This document shows positions 4,464 through 13,372 of a DNA stretch of 64,000 bases, one piece after another. The notes beneath the pieces were generated by a model that saw only the letters and a program-made list of their open reading frames with translations, was not told the DNA's origin and ran no database searches. Source of the stretch: Leptospiraceae bacterium (GTDB lineage Bacteria > Spirochaetota > Leptospiria > Leptospirales > Leptospiraceae); NCBI GenBank assembly GCA_024233835.1, contig JACKPC010000001.1, positions 1,285,442 through 1,349,441 on the forward strand. Direction: 5' to 3'. Each line of letters starts with the position of its first letter. Position 1 is the stretch's first letter. Both the position numbers and the translations under genes were made by a program.

Positions 4464-7400
4464 TTATAATTCTCCCTGATACAGGGAGTATATTTCTGCC
4501 TCTGTGAGTTCTCTATTATAAATTCTCACATCATCTATACTTCCGATGAAATAATCAGTATTCACCGGGTCACCGGCAATGTAGAAAGTAGTAGCAGCTG
4601 AGTTAAAATCTTTAGTACTGTTAAATATGGTTGATCCATTTACTATAATTTTTCTGTTGGTTCCGGTATATAGAAAGCAGGTGTGATACCATGTTCCGTT
4701 GGTACAGGAATAGGAATTATACCAGGTTCCATTTAAAATATTTCGATTTAAACCTATCTCAGTGGAAGATAAACGAGCTGCAAAGTTTGCATTACTATTA
4801 TCTCCACTAAAAAAGATGGCACGATTGGTTGCACTTAAAGAGGAGGGTTTAATCCAACCGCAAACAGTACGGGCTTCCGCAGCCGAAGGAAAATGTGCAG
4901 CAGATGTGGTGATCCAATTGGTTCCACTAAAACTGTAGGCTCTGTTGGCTGTGCCGTATCTGTCTGTACTTGTTGTAGGAGTATTTACAGGAGTCCCGTT
5001 GTCGCTAAACCCGTCTCCGGCATACTCATCGGTAAGGCTTCCTGAATTAAAGGGGTAGTAAGCGAGCATTCCCTTATCCGGATCGGCAGAAAGGATTTTA
5101 ATTTCATTCGCAGTCAGGGAGCGATCATAAATTCGAAGTTCATCGATACTTCCATTCATGCCGATTCCTCCGAGGTCAGCTCTGAGACCGATTCTTACTA
5201 CCGATGTGTTAACCGTTCCGGGGCTTATCGTTCCATTTCCATCGGCAACACCATTGATGTAGAGTTGATAGGATTCTGAAGTCTTGACTACCGCCACATG
5301 TGTCCAGGTAGAAGCCGGAATGGTAGCTGTGCTATCTACGTTAAGACCGGTTCCGGTATTAATTAAGAACTGTAATATATTCGTTCCCATTATACGAAAT
5401 TCAACATGGTGTCCGGAAGTTGCATCATGCCAGGCAATAATCTCATCATCGGTTCCGGCTGCTGTCCTGTAGATCCAGGCGGAAATTGTCATATTCGTGG
5501 GTAAACTAAAATGGGTACCGAGACTGATGTAGCTCGAAGTACTTCCATTGAATGTAGCTACTGTAGAAGTATTCGAGTATCGATTGGAACCTAAGGAAAC
5601 CCCCGTTGCGGTTCCATGATTGGCATTAACGCTGGCATCATCATAATTCGAATCAAAAGGATAGTAGGCATATAAATTAGAAAAAGTATATTCTCTTTTT
5701 TGAGTATATAAGGTTTTCTTTCCGCTGAGATCCGAGACGACTATATTAAAGTAATAAGCTTTTTCTGCACTGAGTCCTGTAATATTTGCAGAAGTAGTTC
5801 CTGTATACGTATTAAACAGGGTTCCGAGTGTTTCGGTTGAAGAAAGCGAAGTAAGGCAGGGGTAGGTTGCATAGTAAACCTTATAGCTTAAACTTCCCGC
5901 TGCGGTAGCCAGGTCGGAAGCTGCATTCCAGCTTAAGGTAAGAGAAGTGGATGCCACATTGCTTGTAAATATATATCCGTTGGCTACAGTAGGGTTTGTG
6001 AAATCATATTGAGCAGAGGGAGAACTTTGAACTGCGGTTCCTGCGAGATTATATTGATCTTTGGGGGTGACTTCAAAGCGTATGTATTTACCATCGTCTC
6101 CGGCTACAAGGGTATAGGTAGTATTTGTAGCTCCTGATATAGCAGAACAGGTGCCGCTTGTAGTATCGGTACAGCGATACCACTGGTAGGCATGAGTTCC
6201 GGGAAGATGTCCATCCACATCGTTATAAGTAAAGGTTCCGCTGAGCACAGAGCCAATGTTGCTTCCTCCGCTAAAAGCTACCAAACTGGCAGTTGGAGGG
6301 TTATTGGCAGCTACAGTAACGCTTACTGTATAGTTCTGGGTGCTGGCATCAGCGGCTGTTACCACGTAGCTCAGGGGAGTTGAAAAGTTATTGGCTGTAG
6401 TTCCTGAAACCTGGTTGACTCCACCCACCGTAATGCTACTTCCGGAAATAGAAAAATTGGCTACCAGAGCCGTCACATTGGTGTTGTAAGGAACGGTAAT
6501 TGCGATATTCGTTCCGCTGATAATACCTGTAGCTGTGGGGGAACTGAAACCAAACGATATAATTTCTTTGGCCGATAGACTATTGGTATCTGTAATAGCA
6601 AGACTAAAGGGATTTGTGCTTTCTCCTGCCGAATTTTTAGTAAAAACCAGAAAGTGTGTGGCCCCTGAAGGGATGCTTGTATTGGTATTGAAAGTGTAGC
6701 TGAGGTTTGTACCTGTCGCCGCCAAATCAGTAATATGACTTAACTTCGTGCTACTATTCGTTCCCCAGTAGAGGGCGTAGGAAGTGATATTGGATTCATC
6801 AGAAGCTTTTCCTATAGTTAAAATTCCTCCGATTTTTCCAACAGAAACATCCGAGTCTGAAAAGTTTAAAGAAGAAGCAGTTAGAGTAGGTGGACTGATT
6901 AGATCCGAAATAGCCGTACTGACTCCTGTTGACATTTGAACGGTTCCATTTTTAGTAAAAGCAAGCAGGTGAGTTGCCATTGCGGGAATAGCAGTAGAAG
7001 CTAAGGTATAGCTAATATTTTGATTTGTTTTGGAAAGAATTGCGATGGGGTTTCCAATTATTTCTGTAGCGGAACTTCCAAAATAGACCGCATAGGTTGT
7101 GACATCTGTTTCATCAGAAGCTTTTGTAATAGAAAGATTTCCTGCAATATAACCCTTGTTTCCATCTGTATCGGTGAAGTTGAGGGCTTCAGCCGCATGG
7201 GTCGGAGAAGTAAAAACAACAGGTTTTGCATCGCTTCCATCTTCTCCAAAAGCAGTAACGGTCATGACCATAGTTCCTGAGGTAGCCACAGGAGTTGGTG
7301 GAGGTGTATCTGCTGTAATTGTTTCAGGCAGAGAAACCGAAATTTCACCTAACTCTACTCCTGACTCACTGACTATAGTAACCTTAAAACTTCCCGGATT

Positions 7401-8027
7401 AAGTTTCATTTCATATTGACCGTTTTCATCCGTAAGAAATTTGGCCTGTGTGTCATTAATAAGTTTATTGGATCCACTTGTTTCTTCTCCCTTCGTGTTG
7501 TTACCGGAGACTGCCAGAAGGTATTTGGCACCATTCGGGGGACTGGTTCCGAGGTTGAGCATATATATATAAGAGCTTGCCCCGGTTTTCCAGAGTTTTG
7601 TAATACGGGAGAGTTTTTGGTTTTCGGCAGATGCCCAATAAAGGGAGTAAAAATTTATTTCTGTTTCGTCTACAGCTTTTGCAATTTTCACTGGTCCGGC
7701 AATTTTTCCCTTCGTAGGATCAATGTCCACAAAGTCCAATTTACCCGGAGCTTTTTCACTAACAACGGAAGTTCCACCAGTAATTTCTTTTTTTACAGAG
7801 GTTGTCGTGGATAAACTTCCGGCACTCACATTTAATGAGGCATTCTTTACAGTTTCTCCACCAGGAGAAAGTAAATTACCTTTTATTGAATACACGGGTT
7901 TTGGAGAACTTTTTTGTGTATTAAAAGCGGTGATTCGTATTAAGTTATCCTTGCTACTGCCTTCCGGTAGAAATGGATTACAGTGGATTATGAATAAAAA
8001 AATTATATTGAAAACTATAAATTTCAT
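4464..8027 (-). CDS. Large secreted or lipoprotein adhesin-like protein. It has a signal peptide, three tandem Ig-like repeats of about 85 aa, a BIG-like domain, an Ig-like domain, FN3 and two C-terminal LamG domains.
   Basis: The ORF-track start at 8057 is probably 10 codons too long. An AAGGA RBS precedes the ATG at 8027 (MKFIVFNIIFLFIIHC...). Repeat units contain FxDxDxxKGxIAGxxxIxKAxDExxxTxYAxYxG ... THxLxFTKN. LamG signatures are DELRIYDRSLTANEI and DDVRIYNRELTEAEI. Confidence 0.8.
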   Translation of the reverse strand: MKFIVFNIIFLFIIHCNPFLPEGSSKDNLIRITAFNTQKSSPKPVYSIKGNLLSPGGETVKNASLNVSAGSLSTTTSVKKEITGGTSVVSEKAPGKLDFVDIDPTKGKIAGPVKIAKAVDETEINFYSLYWASAENQKLSRITKLWKTGASSYIYMLNLGTSPPNGAKYLLAVSGNNTKGEETSGSNKLINDTQAKFLTDENGQYEMKLNPGSFKVTIVSESGVELGEISVSLPETITADTPPPTPVATSGTMVMTVTAFGEDGSDAKPVVFTSPTHAAEALNFTDTDGNKGYIAGNLSITKASDETDVTTYAVYFGSSATEIIGNPIAILSKTNQNISYTLASTAIPAMATHLLAFTKNGTVQMSTGVSTAISDLISPPTLTASSLNFSDSDVSVGKIGGILTIGKASDESNITSYALYWGTNSSTKLSHITDLAATGTNLSYTFNTNTSIPSGATHFLVFTKNSAGESTNPFSLAITDTNSLSAKEIISFGFSSPTATGIISGTNIAITVPYNTNVTALVANFSISGSSITVGGVNQVSGTTANNFSTPLSYVVTAADASTQNYTVSVTVAANNPPTASLVAFSGGSNIGSVLSGTFTYNDVDGHLPGTHAYQWYRCTDTTSGTCSAISGATNTTYTLVAGDDGKYIRFEVTPKDQYNLAGTAVQSSPSAQYDFTNPTVANGYIFTSNVASTSLTLSWNAASDLATAAGSLSYKVYYATYPCLTSLSSTETLGTLFNTYTGTTSANITGLSAEKAYYFNIVVSDLSGKKTLYTQKREYTFSNLYAYYPFDSNYDDASVNANHGTATGVSLGSNRYSNTSTVATFNGSTSSYISLGTHFSLPTNMTISAWIYRTAAGTDDEIIAWHDATSGHHVEFRIMGTNILQFLINTGTGLNVDSTATIPASTWTHVAVVKTSESYQLYINGVADGNGTISPGTVNTSVVRIGLRADLGGIGMNGSIDELRIYDRSLTANEIKILSADPDKGMLAYYPFNSGSLTDEYAGDGFSDNGTPVNTPTTSTDRYGTANRAYSFSGTNWITTSAAHFPSAAEARTVCGWIKPSSLSATNRAIFFSGDNSNANFAARLSSTEIGLNRNILNGTWYNSYSCTNGTWYHTCFLYTGTNRKIIVNGSTIFNSTKDFNSAATTFYIAGDPVNTDYFIGSIDDVRIYNRELTEAEIYSLYQGEL

Positions 8028-8209
8028 GATTGAGTTTTCCTTTGAATTGTATAGCATATAAGACTATACTTTTTTTTATATTTCTATTTTTTTGACAATT
8101 ATTTTTAAAACTAAAATGCCCTAAATATAAATATGATTCGACACCTTAATGCTCGTAGAAAAATATTAGTTATCAACTGATTTATGAATTCAGGTGTTAA
8201 GGGATAGAA

Positions 8210-9038
8210 ATGAAAGAATTTTTCTTTAAAGAAGGAATTCACCCCAGTGCTATAGTGGAAGATGGAGCGAAAATAGGGAGTGGTGTTTCGATTGGAGCCT
8301 ATTCCGTTATAGGTCCCAATGTTGTACTGAAAGACGGTGTGAAAATTGCTCAAAATGTAATGGTTTCCGGGTTTACAACTATAGAAGAGGAAGCTGAAAT
8401 ATATCCATTTAATATAATAGGTGGCCCGGCTCAGGATCTGAAATACCTGGAGTATGAAGGAAAATTGAAGATTGGAAAAAAAGACTATTGTTCGGGAACA
8501 TACCAGCATACATGCAGGAACTCCTCATTCCGAACATCAGACGGTAATCGGAGATAGTGTCTATATCATGGCTGCCACTCATATCGGTCATGATGTTATG
8601 ATTGGTAATCATTCTATTATTGCAAGCGTTGGTATTGCCGGGCACGTAGAAATTGCAGACCATGTTGTTCTTGGTGCCAGAGCAGGTTTTCATCAGTTTG
8701 TGCATATCGGTCGCTTTGTCATGACGGCCGGTGTAGCAGCCTTCACCAAAGATGTACCTCCCTTTGCCATATCCGAACATGAAAGACCAAATGAATTTTC
8801 CGGCTTAAACGTTATCGGTTTGAAGCGTAATGGGTTTAAGAAGTCGGATATCCAGGAAATCAGGGAAATTTACAAGTATCTGTATTCTTTAAAAGGAAAA
8901 ATAAAAAATAGAACAGGTCCTTTACTGGAGAAATTTCCCGGAAGTGCTTACGCAAAAGAGATTGCGGAGTTCATTAATAAATCAAAAATGAATATCTGTA
9001 CTCCGGGAAGAAGGGGAGTCTCCTCGGAAGAAGAATAA
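8210..9038 (+). pseudogene. lpxA: UDP-N-acetylglucosamine O-acyltransferase LpxA, split into two overlapping frames by a 1-nt insertion in an A7 homopolymer at 8476-8482
   Basis: The left-handed beta-helix hexapeptide repeat protein aligns end to end with LpxA (IHPSAIVEDGAKIG...; ...IVREHTSIHAGT...MAATHIGHDVMIGNHSIIAS...FSGLNVIGLKRNGF). Deleting one A gives the continuous sequence KLKIGKKTIVREHTSIH, which parallels E. coli RVEIGDRNRIRESVTIH. Confidence 0.8.
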
Positions 9039-9053
9039 ATATATTCAATAAAG

Positions 9054-9087
9054 AATCTCAGGGAAGAAGTTCAAACTCCCTGAGATT
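9054..9087. terminator. Strong bidirectional hairpin (11-bp perfect stem) between lpxA (+) and the convergent membrane-protein gene (-)
   Basis: AATCTCAGGGA-agaagttcaaac-TCCCTGAGATT, followed by a T-rich tract on the + strand (tttactctttttctg). Confidence 0.55.
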
Positions 9088-9091
9088 AAAT

Positions 9092-11476
9092 TTACTCTTT
9101 TTCTGAACGTATATATAAGAAAGAACCGAAAATTAAGAGTCCTCCTAAAATTAAAAAAGCGAATATTCGAACAATCGCATCCATTCTGGCCAGGTCGACA
9201 AAGAAAACTTTTAAAACTACTACTAAAAAGAGGGCAAGTCCTGTGTAGCGAAGAGCTTTTTCTTTTTTTTGAATTCCGTAGGTAATACAGGAAATGGCAT
9301 AGACCGACCACAAAACACTCACCGCACCTTTTTGCAAGCGAGGCATGAAATGTTCAAAAAACTGCCTTACTTCTAGAGATAAAAATTGGAATAAAAATAA
9401 AAGACCGATTACAGCAAAGTAGGATGGTCGTACTTTAGAATCTGAAGAAGTAAATCTTCGAAAGTTGAATATACTGAAAGCTATTACGAAAAAAGTAAAC
9501 CAGCGCAGGATAAATTCAAAGAAAGTATATTCACCCTTATACATTCCCATCCCCTCTCCGAACCAGACGGAAAAGAAAAGAACTGTAAAGCGAAATAATA
9601 CAAGAATAAGTAGTAGAATACCGATAGCGGAAAATAAAGGATTCTTTGTAGCTGTAAAATAGAAGTATATAAGGAAACCAAAAATACACCAGGTGGAAGT
9701 TATAAATAATTCTTTTACAGAAGAATTTATAAAGAAAGCATCGAACTCAGCGTTTAAGAATAAGAAAAAAGCAATGATTCCCATCCAGAATAGAATGGGT
9801 TTCCCCCTACCTTCCAGTTTTTTTAGAGTATGTAAATCATTTTTGTTATCAAAAATTGTTTCCCCGTATTGTTTGTGTTCAAGATACAAGCCAAGGAAAT
9901 AAGAAAGGATACTCGAACCGGTTCCGAGCATTCTGCCGATAAAACCCTGCCAGTAATTACCGGGTAGAGTATCAAAGCTTGCCGGAAGGTCGAGAAAAAA
10001 AGTGCGAAAGCCAAGGATTGTATAAGAAATATAAGATAAGGTAGAGAGAAAGGAGCTTCCAAGTTTTTTTCCAAGCCAGAGGAGAATAGCAGAAAACAGG
10101 GCCCAGGCAAAGGTTAAAGCTCTTTCTTCCAGGAATAAAGGCAGAGTTAAGCCGGTAAAAAAAACAGCCAGACCTAAGAGAGAAAGTGAAAGTGCTTTAT
10201 CTTCTATATTTTTCTTATAAAAGAAGTAGACATGAGCTATGTAGTATATTCCTAAAATATTACTGACAATAGAGGGATATTTACTTCCGTAGAGATGGTT
10301 AATATGGGAATAAGCGAGAATAAAAAATAGAAAGGCATTGCTGATAAGATGGATGATTTCCAGGGTAGTGCTTTTTTCTTTTTTTAGAATTTTGTAATAA
10401 TACGCAAGAGCAGAGTGTATTAGAAAAAAGATACACAAGAAAACCATATTTAAAATGAAATTTTCCTTTTGATTCTGATGGCTTCCTCCCGCATACAAAA
10501 GATAGGTAAAGAAAAATGCGAGGTAATTTAAAAGTCTCCAATTTTTAAAATGGGCGATACTCAAAATTCCAATGTTCAGAAGTAACATATACGTATAAAG
10601 AGTCGGAAGGTTGGCATTGCCGGTGCTTAAAAGGATGGGTGTAAAAAAGCCTCCGATAATTCCAAAAATCGCTACCAGCATAGAATTAGTATAGACCGAA
10701 ACTACCCCCGCTCCTACTGTAATCAATGCCATGAAGAGAAATTCCAGACCTACGGGAATCATTTGATAAAAGTGTCCGGCTGCATAGGTGCTAAAGTAAA
10801 AGGTCGCGATACCTCCACCCAATAGCCCTTGAGCTATCAGATGGTATTTTTTATTAATGAGCTTAATACCTCCTAAAAGCATCGCGGAAGCAGAAAGAAG
10901 ACCTATGAGTAGCCTTGCTGAGGGACCTATAAGGTTTCGTTCAATACTCCAATTCAAAACATAGACCAGGGCACTTACAATCGCAATGATTCCTATGCGT
11001 AAAAGCCAGGTGGTAGCTACTGCATATTCCACCGAACCTACCGGAACTTCTTCCTGTCCGTATAATATCCAACTTTTTATTTTAGATAAAGCTTTACTAC
11101 CGGTTTCCGGTTTCTCTTCCAAAATTTCCTGCTTAAAGAATACAGGTTCTCTTGAGACAGATTTTTCTATTACCTCAGGTTGTTTCTCTTCAAGTTTTTC
11201 TTCTTGAGGAGTAGCTTCAGCTTTTAAACTAACAAGCCCTGCAGGTGGTTTTGCTCTCACAGGTTCTTCTGAAGGAGGGCTGTATATTTTGGCTTCCGGA
11301 ACTTTTCTTGTTTCCGTTTTTTCTTCTTTTGGAATAGAGACTCCATTTTTTTTGAGCAGGGTTTCAATATCCCTTAATTGTTCCCTTTGTTTTCGTATTT
11401 CCTCTTTTAGTTGGCTTATCATAAAAAGAAGAATTACAAAAAAGATAAATAAAACTACAAAATATACAGCTTCCAT
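9092..11476 (-). CDS. Polytopic inner-membrane protein, DUF2339-like. It has one N-terminal TM helix, a coiled-coil segment and then about 20 TM helices.
   Basis: The hydrophobicity pattern is clear. The N-terminus reads MEAVYFVVLFIFFVILLFMISQLKEEIRKQREQLRDIETLLKK. Its ATG at 11476 abuts the stop of the upstream flotillin-like gene at 11477. Confidence 0.5.
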   Translation of the reverse strand: MEAVYFVVLFIFFVILLFMISQLKEEIRKQREQLRDIETLLKKNGVSIPKEEKTETRKVPEAKIYSPPSEEPVRAKPPAGLVSLKAEATPQEEKLEEKQPEVIEKSVSREPVFFKQEILEEKPETGSKALSKIKSWILYGQEEVPVGSVEYAVATTWLLRIGIIAIVSALVYVLNWSIERNLIGPSARLLIGLLSASAMLLGGIKLINKKYHLIAQGLLGGGIATFYFSTYAAGHFYQMIPVGLEFLFMALITVGAGVVSVYTNSMLVAIFGIIGGFFTPILLSTGNANLPTLYTYMLLLNIGILSIAHFKNWRLLNYLAFFFTYLLYAGGSHQNQKENFILNMVFLCIFFLIHSALAYYYKILKKEKSTTLEIIHLISNAFLFFILAYSHINHLYGSKYPSIVSNILGIYYIAHVYFFYKKNIEDKALSLSLLGLAVFFTGLTLPLFLEERALTFAWALFSAILLWLGKKLGSSFLSTLSYISYTILGFRTFFLDLPASFDTLPGNYWQGFIGRMLGTGSSILSYFLGLYLEHKQYGETIFDNKNDLHTLKKLEGRGKPILFWMGIIAFFLFLNAEFDAFFINSSVKELFITSTWCIFGFLIYFYFTATKNPLFSAIGILLLILVLFRFTVLFFSVWFGEGMGMYKGEYTFFEFILRWFTFFVIAFSIFNFRRFTSSDSKVRPSYFAVIGLLFLFQFLSLEVRQFFEHFMPRLQKGAVSVLWSVYAISCITYGIQKKEKALRYTGLALFLVVVLKVFFVDLARMDAIVRIFAFLILGGLLIFGSFLYIRSEKE

Positions 11477-13207
11477 CTACGCCTCGTCTTTTACTTTTAG
11501 AGCCTGTATATAGCTCAGGGTTTTTTGTATAAACGATGCCATATTATCAAAAAGAGGATCTGTTTTATCTGTTTGTAATACTCTAAATTCCTTGATTTCA
11601 GGCATGTTTTCTGCAATGCGGGGTAATTCTTTAATCAGTCTTAGGGTTAACTGTTCTGCATTCACTTTATTTCGGGCATCTTGTTTTAGGTTCTCTGCCC
11701 TGGCCATTAATTCTTCGTATTGATAATTAAGCTCATTTTCTTTGCGCTTGAATTCAAATTCTACATCTTTTGAGAGTTTTTCTTTTTCAAGGTTCAGGTT
11801 TAATTGCAGTAGTTCTAAGTCTTTCAGTAAATTTGTTTTGAATTTTTCAAAATCCAAGTTTTTTTCGTGTAGAATTTTTTCTCTTTCGAGTTTTTCTAAG
11901 TCTGCTTCTTGCCTAATTTTTTCGAGTCTGCGGTTTTCTTCTATGACAAAAAGCTCACGTTCTGTTTCTGCACGTTTTTCTTCCTGTTCTTTTACTTCTT
12001 GTTGTTTTAGTTCTTCAAGACTACGTTTTAGTTCAATTTCTTTTTCTCTACTTTTTAACCTGTTTTCCATTTCCTTTTTTGCGGTAATGGTTTCTTCTTC
12101 AAGCTTTAGTTTATGTTGTTCGTTTTTCTTTATGTCTTCATGCCGCTTGGAATCTTCCCTGAGACGGAGTTGTGTAGCTTCAGTTTCTTTTTCCTGCTTT
12201 GTTTTTTCAATTTCCAAATTTGTTTCGGCTGCTCTTGTTTCTTTTAACTGTCTTGTTTCCGCTTCTTTCTTATGAATTTCATTATCCATTTCTAATTGAC
12301 TGATGCGGGCTTTCTTTTTCTGTTCATTACGATAGGGGCTCTGCAAATCATTCCAGAGAGAGGCCGAACTAACAAGGGCTTCTCTGATTTGTACAGTTAT
12401 AATTTTTATTCCCAGACCTTCTTTTCCTTCGGCTACTCGGCTTAAACGAGAAGTTAATTCTTCAATCACAGGAGCTTTATCGGTTAGCACCTCTTCCACA
12501 CTCATCGTTGCAATTTTATCTTTAATTGCGGCCTCAGCCTGCTCGCGTAACTGTGCATTCACAATTCCTAATGGATCGTTAGAATTACTCAGGTCTAATT
12601 TTTTATAGGCTATAGAAAAATCATCAATTTGCCATTGCACATAGGCTAATATATTAATTCCCTGTTTTTCTTTGCTAATGCAGTTGGCCACTACACCTAT
12701 GGTTTGCATGGCAGCGGGGATAACTAAATAGGCATCGGTGCGAGGATTATAACGAAAGGAAATTCCAAGGCCGAGTGTAACGGGTTCTTTTCTATGAATT
12801 CGTGTATGAACCACATAGGCATTGGGAGGAACTATGACTCTTCTCCAAAACCATCTGCCTGTAATCCGAACTCGAATCGGTTCTTTTTCTAATTGTAATT
12901 CTTCGGATGATTTAATTCCTGAGTCAGGGAGATAGTTTTGTTTTCTGGGCATGGGTTTCCTCTCTTCACGTTTTTCTTCAATGTCATTTCTAAGTCTGAA
13001 ATCCGCAGCACCGCCGGGTGCGGGTGAATAAGCGATATTTTCGTTTACCGAAGCAGGCATATCCATCATAGCTTGCTGATAATATGGTTCTTCTGTAGCG
13101 GGCATTGGTTCCGGCATCGGTGCCTCGTCGTATTCCTCAAACGTATCTTCCATCGCTTTTGATTGCTGTTCGAGAAAGACTTCTTTTGCAGCTTTTCGTT
13201 TTTGCAT
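11477..13207 (-). CDS. SPFH / band-7 (flotillin-like) protein with an acidic, Pro-rich N-terminal extension and a C-terminal E/K-rich coiled coil of about 250 aa
   Basis: Band-7 core motifs: RVIVPPNAYVVHTRI..., QTIGVVANCISKEKQGINILAYVQWQIDD, ITVQIREAL. A long heptad-like EKxxEE region follows. Confidence 0.65.
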   Translation of the reverse strand: MQKRKAAKEVFLEQQSKAMEDTFEEYDEAPMPEPMPATEEPYYQQAMMDMPASVNENIAYSPAPGGAADFRLRNDIEEKREERKPMPRKQNYLPDSGIKSSEELQLEKEPIRVRITGRWFWRRVIVPPNAYVVHTRIHRKEPVTLGLGISFRYNPRTDAYLVIPAAMQTIGVVANCISKEKQGINILAYVQWQIDDFSIAYKKLDLSNSNDPLGIVNAQLREQAEAAIKDKIATMSVEEVLTDKAPVIEELTSRLSRVAEGKEGLGIKIITVQIREALVSSASLWNDLQSPYRNEQKKKARISQLEMDNEIHKKEAETRQLKETRAAETNLEIEKTKQEKETEATQLRLREDSKRHEDIKKNEQHKLKLEEETITAKKEMENRLKSREKEIELKRSLEELKQQEVKEQEEKRAETERELFVIEENRRLEKIRQEADLEKLEREKILHEKNLDFEKFKTNLLKDLELLQLNLNLEKEKLSKDVEFEFKRKENELNYQYEELMARAENLKQDARNKVNAEQLTLRLIKELPRIAENMPEIKEFRVLQTDKTDPLFDNMASFIQKTLSYIQALKVKDEA

Positions 13208-13372
13208 ATCAAACCCCTGTGTATTAATGAGTATGAGTATAACGGGAGGGAATTTTTATGTCAATAGGGAAATCAATATTTCGATTACTGTCAGGATAAA
13301 AAATAGTTCAAAATCTGATTTGGATTTTTAGGAACTTATATCAGGGTATGAAATATATTAGAAAATTTATTA

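Follow-up and report, generated by a model that had tools for sequence, protein, structure and literature searches.

The SPFH–DUF2339 gene pair

The window analysed here is a 64-kb stretch of a Leptospiraceae metagenome-assembled genome (MAG) whose reverse strand carries a gene for an SPFH (Band_7) protein of 576 amino acids (aa) without a transmembrane (TM) segment (11477–13207) and, directly behind it, a gene of the DUF2339/Arc3A family (9092–11476) coding for a 794-aa protein with approximately 23 predicted membrane helices. Both genes come from open reading frame (ORF) calls, supplemented for the second one by a PF10101 match, an AlphaFold model and hydropathy. At the junction (11474–11485, reverse strand), which reads gcgTAGATGgaa, the TAG stop codon of the SPFH gene (11479–11477) is followed by the ATG of the DUF2339 gene (11476–11474) with zero bases in between, and a Shine-Dalgarno sequence GAGG (11485–11482) is located 5 nt 5′ of this ATG, within the SPFH gene. 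The sequence thus confirms the coordinates and the exact abutment of stop and start that were given in the initial annotation of this DNA.

A sigma-70-type promoter (TTGACA-17 nt-TATACT, 13236–13264, reverse strand), the best site in the region with 11 of 12 consensus matches, was found within the 165-bp spacer 5′ of the SPFH gene, which has its own Shine-Dalgarno sequence, AGGGG, at 13218–13214. At the other end, a terminator-like hairpin with a U-rich tail (9045–9087, reverse strand; 12-bp stem at 9087–9054, −16.9 kcal/mol, z = −3.85) is located 5 nt past the stop codon of the DUF2339 gene, between this gene and the convergent lpxA; it was detected by folding, whereas a pattern scan with a loop limit of 8 nt did not pick it up because of its longer loop. 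There is no third gene in the ORF list between the promoter and terminator positions. With one promoter and one terminator around both genes, the pair appears to be a self-contained two-gene operon, and its co-transcription as a two-gene unit is supported by these signals. The GC content is ∼ 0.36 in the SPFH gene, the DUF2339 gene and their surroundings alike, so that there is no sign of a recent foreign insertion.

The SPFH protein lacks a membrane anchor

The initial annotation had described the first product as flotillin-like and the second one as DUF2339-like, and proposed hidden Markov model (HMM) searches with both. The SPFH protein matches Band_7 (PF01145) of Pfam with an E-value of 2.8e-17 and a score of 63.8 bits, above the curated cut-off of 23.6, over aa 125–306 (model positions 2–173 of 176). 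Hydropathy analysis revealed no TM segment and no signal peptide: the sole 19-residue window at 1.6 on the Kyte-Doolittle scale, aa 159–177, lies inside the conserved domain core. An N-terminal TM helix or hairpin anchor is absent, and none of the 24 aligned homologues has a hydrophobic N-terminus.

In the alignment of these 24 homologues, the extreme N-terminus retains the motif MxKRKAAxxFxEQQ, which corresponds to aa 1–17 of the window protein (MQKRKAAKEVFLEQQSK; 13157–13207, reverse strand) and is predicted to be helical. It is followed by an acidic, proline-rich disordered linker (aa 18–97), whose length varies among the homologues, then by the motif KSSEELQLEKEP and an aromatic/basic motif GxWFWKR, and then by the SPFH domain. 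In the window protein, the aromatic/basic motif reads GRWFWRR and stands just before the domain, which, judging from the Band_7 match and the alignment, covers aa 98–306 (12290–12916, reverse strand). The C-terminal part is dominated by a long helix rich in E, K and R (aa 292–533; 11609–12334, reverse strand; 23% E, 15% K). Sequence identity to the window protein is very uneven along the chain: it amounts to 77–90% in the domain (aa 98–300), across phyla, and drops to a mean of 52% in the N-terminal motif, ∼ 37% in the long helix and ∼ 16% in the linker.

The acidic, proline-rich N-terminal extension of about 110 aa that had been noted earlier is real, both by composition (residues 1–110 contain 16% Glu and 11% Pro) and by the low predicted local distance difference test (pLDDT) values of the AlphaFold model, built from 24 homologues, which shows a helix at residues 7–23 and pLDDT of less than 50 at residues 25–107. 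This extension is more than a spacer, as it carries the conserved 17-aa motif. The motif also bears on the choice of the start codon. A 100% identical protein is annotated at NCBI as H7A25_05940 with a start that gives 546 aa, whereas other gene callers use the 576-aa start; the conservation of the N-terminal motif indicates that the latter is right and that the NCBI start is 30 codons short (13118–13207, reverse strand). The AGGGG Shine-Dalgarno sequence likewise favours the ATG at 13207.

The long helix was modelled as one helix of 242 residues with pLDDT of ∼ 90. Its heptad periodicity was not above that of shuffled sequences, so that 'E/K-rich long helix' is a safer label than 'coiled coil', which we did not adopt for aa 292–533; this is the region in which an E/K coiled coil of about 250 aa had been suggested. 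The helix could exist by itself as a stable single alpha-helix, or it could pack sideways as a 'cage wall' helix, in the manner of HflK/C and flotillin, instead of forming a classical coiled coil. The SPFH domain itself is poorly modelled (pLDDT of less than 50 at aa 167–222 and 259–284) and, for this reason, a Foldseek search with the model was uninformative, returning fibronectin-type and designed-protein noise and a non-significant flotillin line (E = 0.09). Among PDB sequences, a profile search gave no SPFH protein of known structure at E ≤ 0.01.

A phmmer search of 1.84 billion cluster representatives produced 358 relatives of the SPFH protein at E ≤ 1e-3. With so few relatives, the clade is small and isolated from the mainstream flotillins. 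The closest relatives (52–60% identity) come from Leptospiraceae, and the hosts of the clade include Spirochaetota, Chloroflexota, Desulfobacterota (Desulfonema), Bacteroidota, Gemmatimonadota, Obscuribacterales and the large sulfur bacteria Thiomargarita and Parabeggiatoa, many of them filamentous or very large. This distribution suggests strong constraint combined with lateral transfer. Two sulfidic-cave MAG contigs that contain SPFH orthologues (L056 and L058) are titled 'Borreliella garinii' and 'Leptospira biflexa', names that look implausible for MAGs from the environment.

The DUF2339 protein belongs to the Arc3A family

The second protein matches PF10101 over nearly the full model (E = 6.1e-85, 286.8 bits against a cut-off of 33.6; aa 155–789, model positions 2–657 of 659). 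Its AlphaFold model, based on 118 homologues (pLDDT 81.5, predicted template modelling score 0.72), contains a first TM helix (TM1) and 22 further long helices within residues 149–793, and hydropathy analysis showed 15 strong hydrophobic segments, plus weaker ones. The initial count of about 21 TM helices is therefore roughly right. A scan of both proteins against NCBIfam gave nothing meaningful, and a PADLOC scan gave no match for either of them, so that a known anti-phage system finds no support here.

Residues 23–148 of the DUF2339 protein (11033–11410, reverse strand) form a region predicted to be cytoplasmic on the basis of the AlphaFold model and loop charge. It consists of a helix that continues TM1 (aa 23–43), a disordered Glu/Lys/Pro-rich stretch (aa 44–125) and an amphipathic helix (aa 126–139); in place of the N-terminal coiled coil proposed earlier, there is the short helix at aa 23–43 extending TM1. 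The short loops of the protein contain 29 Lys and Arg residues on the side of this linker versus 10 on the opposite side. From this bias, a cytoplasmic position is predicted for the linker, which would put it where the anchor-less SPFH protein is expected to be. The same architecture of an N-terminal helix and a linker is common to those DUF2339 homologues that are paired with DUF3999.

Foldseek found no significant structural neighbour for the DUF2339 model in the PDB (the best query-normalised TM-score was 0.22), so that its fold cannot be used for inferring a mechanism; a profile search of PDB sequences likewise found no solved relative. Weak matches to TPR proteins and to toroidal alpha-repeat designs came top in the Foldseek search and hint at an array of repeated helical hairpins in the membrane. 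The charged residues that are invariant across the 118 homologues include E150, R160, E577, R658, E702, R743, K756 and D761 and may mark a functional site.

According to PMC8926400, DUF2339 is the Arc3A family. Arc3A was reported there as the main survival determinant of Pseudomonas aeruginosa and P. protegens against Tle3, a phospholipase delivered by the type VI secretion system, and it blocks the build-up of lysophosphatidylethanolamine and monolysocardiolipin, the mechanism being described as unknown (PMC8926400). A second study (bioRxiv 10.1101/2024.10.26.620397) confirmed the protective effect for two lipase effectors, TseL and Tle1. Arc3A usually has Arc3B (DUF3999, PF13163) as its partner, a protein with a predicted periplasm-spanning structure and a small share in the defence; an Arc3B neighbour is usual in Gram-negative phyla, not obligatory, and Arc3A homologues without Arc3B exist (PMC8926400). 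From its family membership, the window protein may be expected to have a role in phospholipase protection or in dealing with lysophospholipids, the experiments being confined to Pseudomonas. The Leptospira papers that mention DUF2339 provide only expression values for it, with no genomic context.

Gene neighbourhoods of the two families

We compared 86 loci with SPFH orthologues, of which 80 came from a one-genome-per-species scan and six were individually inspected neighbourhoods. A tblastn search with 120 DUF2339 proteins found a DUF2339 gene at none of them. In 60 of the 86 loci there was at least 2.5 kb of downstream DNA, and these included 12 spirochaetal loci, again with no DUF2339 gene in any of the 12, so that the pairing is not conserved across the spirochaetes compared here. 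The inspected neighbourhoods (Desulfonema, Ardenticatenaceae, Bacteroidales, two Leptospiraceae lineages and the closest homologue) had no DUF2339 either; in the closest homologue, with 60% identity, an LptE-like gene comes next. Clustering of the flanking ORFs at the 86 loci revealed no conserved neighbour of the SPFH gene of any kind; in this clade, the SPFH gene normally stands alone.

The reverse comparison covered the 80 nearest DUF2339 loci, taken from metagenomes, none of which contained an SPFH gene of this clade. A DUF3999 gene was found directly downstream, on the same strand, at 72 of the 80, as well as at locus L010, and in seven of the eight loci without it the downstream DNA was too short to tell. 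Band_7 was not enriched in the 92 other genes that flank DUF2339: a Pfam tally did not have it among the families to which at least two of these genes belong. The 64-kb window has no homologue of DUF3999 (best E = 3.8). The closest relatives of the DUF2339 protein, only 33–40% identical to it, belong to Verrucomicrobia, Lentisphaerae, Kiritimatiellia, Planctomycetota and Methylomonas.

The exact DUF2339 protein was found in three other assemblies, in the same gene context. Their contigs are 100% identical to the window in nucleotide sequence and hence represent the same strain, not independent evidence. A search for lpxA, the histidine kinase and the aldehyde dehydrogenase of the window beside SPFH orthologues found only unrelated kinase paralogues, so this synteny test did not support the idea that the DUF2339 gene had been cleanly inserted.

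The initial annotation had considered the pair to mark a dedicated membrane-microdomain or scaffold complex, and stated that absence of the pairing from all related genomes would refute this view. Such absence is what we found in the related genomes examined, on both the SPFH side and the DUF2339 side. The pair is best described, from these comparisons, as a local arrangement seen in one strain that joins new members of known families.

Comparison with known systems

The window DUF2339 gene resembles Arc3A of P. aeruginosa (PA5114, with Arc3B encoded by PA5113) in fitting PF10101 over the full model, the family by which Arc3A homologues were defined in PMC8926400; in the many, densely packed TM helices of its product; and in the fact that nearly all of its nearest relatives have DUF3999/Arc3B next to them. 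It differs from that system in the absence of DUF3999/Arc3B from the window and in being the second gene of its operon, after an SPFH gene. Also, 35 helices have been reported for PA5114 (PMC8926400) as compared with ∼ 23 in the window protein.

Among SPFH systems, one with a comparable gene layout is PspA-YdjGHI (SamGHI) of Bacillus subtilis, in which YdjI/SamI, a cytosolic SPFH protein, is recruited to the membrane by YdjG/YdjH encoded in the same operon (PMC8581546; bioRxiv 10.64898/2026.02.06.704340). Both operons combine an anchor-less SPFH protein with an integral membrane protein and share the theme of membrane stress; the likeness lies in the layout, and homology to YdjI is known at the level of the SPFH superfamily. 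Unlike the B. subtilis system, the window operon has no gene for the ESCRT-III-like PspA, its 794-aa DUF2339 protein contrasts with the small membrane partners YdjG/YdjH, its SPFH protein has 576 aa with the 242-residue helix, and its gene pair is not conserved elsewhere.

In layout, the window protein is like the bacterial and eukaryotic flotillins (SPFH2; FloT, YqiK, flotillin-1/2): the SPFH domain leads into a long helical region rich in charge, and a short segment at the C-terminus is conserved. Several of its homologues are labelled 'flotillin' by JGI; unlike flotillins, it has no N-terminal hairpin or TM anchor. Such an N-terminal anchor is found in 10 of the 12 prokaryotic SPFH subfamilies, the other two being predicted to be soluble (PMC2636767). 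In this respect, the window protein is like these soluble ones, SPFH8 and SPFH9, a likeness that does not amount to an assignment. The statement in the initial annotation that SPFH proteins usually pair with NfeD is too broad, as NfeD partners are found only in subfamilies SPFH1, 2 and 5 (PMC2636767). There is no NfeD-family gene beside the window SPFH gene, the operon consisting of Band_7 and DUF2339 only. The HflK/HflC-FtsH cage is an example of an SPFH assembly with a polytopic membrane client; however, HflK/C are TM-anchored and face the periplasm, in contrast to the predicted cytoplasmic location of the window SPFH protein, and the window operon has no ftsH gene.

The latter complex is of interest here through its Pseudomonas genes, including PA4941, which we take to be hflC. 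A pull-down with Arc3A of P. aeruginosa enriched PA4751 12.9-fold, PA4942 6.4-fold and PA4941 2.6-fold (PMC8926400, Appendix 1-table 1); PA4751 is ftsH and PA4942 is hflK (PMC9866376). The passages of PMC8926400 on the pull-down make no mention of a link between DUF2339 and an SPFH assembly. The enrichment of FtsH and HflK hints at such a link in a circumstantial way, although quality control acting on a large, tagged membrane protein may be all that lies behind it.

A probable local operon of two membrane-homeostasis genes

We favour, with moderate confidence, the interpretation of the pair as a strain- or species-specific operon that joins two independently evolving membrane-homeostasis genes, whose products would be co-regulated parts of tolerance to membrane damage, as opposed to an obligate co-evolved complex. 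Transcription would proceed from the near-consensus sigma-70-type promoter to the hairpin just past the DUF2339 gene, and ribosomes that finish the SPFH gene at its TAG would restart at the abutting ATG, with GAGG 5 nt upstream, so that both proteins would be made together; the junction thus points to co-translation. The SPFH protein would be an anchor-less, cytoplasmic, flotillin-like protein that probably oligomerises via its 242-residue charged helix; the GRWFWRR motif, the basic N-terminal helix or both probably contact the inner leaflet of the membrane. The DUF2339 protein would be a polytopic inner-membrane protein of the Arc3A family whose usual periplasmic partner, Arc3B (DUF3999), is not encoded beside it. 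Membrane integrity is the common theme of the two families.

Several observations weigh against this interpretation. An abutting stop and start with an internal Shine-Dalgarno sequence is an arrangement often seen for subunits of a single complex. An anchor-less SPFH protein needs a route to the membrane, for which the polytopic product of the other gene in the operon would be an obvious candidate. The enrichment of FtsH (12.9-fold) and HflK (6.4-fold) in the Arc3A pull-down (PMC8926400) hints at association between DUF2339 and SPFH proteins. Furthermore, the compared genomes are all from outside the genus, so that the verdict on conservation holds for these longer distances, and the absence of DUF3999 pertains to the 64-kb window as distinct from the whole genome.

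These observations lead to the alternative that the two proteins form a physical complex, which we regard as possible and still rather unlikely. The Arc3A-like protein would provide the SPFH protein with its missing anchor: the SPFH oligomer would dock on the cytoplasmic helix and linker at aa 23–148 of the former, much as SamI is recruited by SamG/SamH, and a flotillin-like scaffold would surround a membrane protein that handles lysophospholipids. Topology would allow such a complex, as the linker has a predicted cytoplasmic location, on the side of the SPFH protein; the abutting genes with the Shine-Dalgarno sequence inside the SPFH gene, the lack of a TM segment in the SPFH protein, the YdjI/SamI precedent (PMC8581546; bioRxiv 10.64898/2026.02.06.704340) and the pull-down (PMC8926400) also fit it. 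Nevertheless, the pair occurs at 0 of 86 SPFH-orthologue loci and 0 of the 80 nearest DUF2339 loci. SPFH orthologues with 77–90% identical domains function without an adjacent DUF2339 gene, and a DUF2339 anchor is therefore not generally required. Homologues paired with DUF3999 have the same N-terminal helix and linker as the DUF2339 protein, and nothing in this region points to adaptation towards a partner of the SPFH type. As for the pull-down, HflK/C face the periplasm, unlike the window SPFH protein, and the enrichment of FtsH and HflKC may be due to quality control.

It is also conceivable, albeit improbable, that the adjacency is fortuitous and carries no functional link. An Arc3A-type gene lacking arc3B would then have come to lie behind a solitary SPFH gene through a rearrangement or insertion, and the tight spacing would be due to the compaction of a transcript that reads through. 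Only one strain has the pairing, and the flanking genes are not syntenic with the related Leptospiraceae loci. Moreover, the relatives of the DUF2339 protein (at most 40% identity; the Planctomycetes-Verrucomicrobia-Chlamydiae group and Methylomonas) differ in lineage from those of the SPFH protein (52–60%; Leptospiraceae), which indicates that the two genes have different histories. Chance would not, however, readily account for a single promoter and a single terminator serving both genes, and the exact abutment with a well-placed Shine-Dalgarno sequence suggests selection for joint expression; the uniform GC content of the genes and their surroundings (∼ 0.36) and the ties of both families to membrane integrity also speak against it.

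Another possibility, which strikes us as doubtful, is a variant of the Arc3 system in this Leptospiraceae lineage: the cytoplasmic SPFH protein would bind to the N-terminal linker of the Arc3A-like protein, its scaffold would corral this lysophospholipid-buffering protein, and it would act as a partner in place of, or besides, the periplasm-spanning Arc3B. If true, an SPFH scaffold would for the first time be directly linked to phospholipase defence, and the enrichment of HflK and FtsH in the Pseudomonas pull-down would fit.

Neighbouring genes

The convergent lpxA gene (8210–9038, forward strand) consists of two overlapping frames that are split at a run of seven A residues (8476–8482). One A fewer in this run restores an intact LpxA that reads ...IGKKTIVREHTSIHAGT... 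The same seven-A run is present in contig L172, which is itself 100% identical DNA; the split may be a real frameshift, slippage at the run or an assembly error. Further along, the window encodes a 1197-aa protein (4464–8057, reverse strand) with repeated Ser/Thr-rich modules, a Laminin_G_3 domain (Pfam annotation from L172) and a lipoprotein-like N-terminus, which is probably a surface adhesin.

Implications

For the time being, the main value of these results is corrective: what looked like a 'giant DUF2339 protein' already has a family role, that of Arc3A, and a usual partner, DUF3999. Should the two proteins cooperate, the operon would connect two membrane-integrity systems, SPFH/flotillin scaffolds and Arc3A, and would offer a simple two-gene system for studying the route by which an SPFH protein without an anchor gets to the membrane. 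Most worthy of attention is the SPFH clade itself, which is small, anchor-less and stand-alone, and whose domain is 77–90% identical over at least four phyla.

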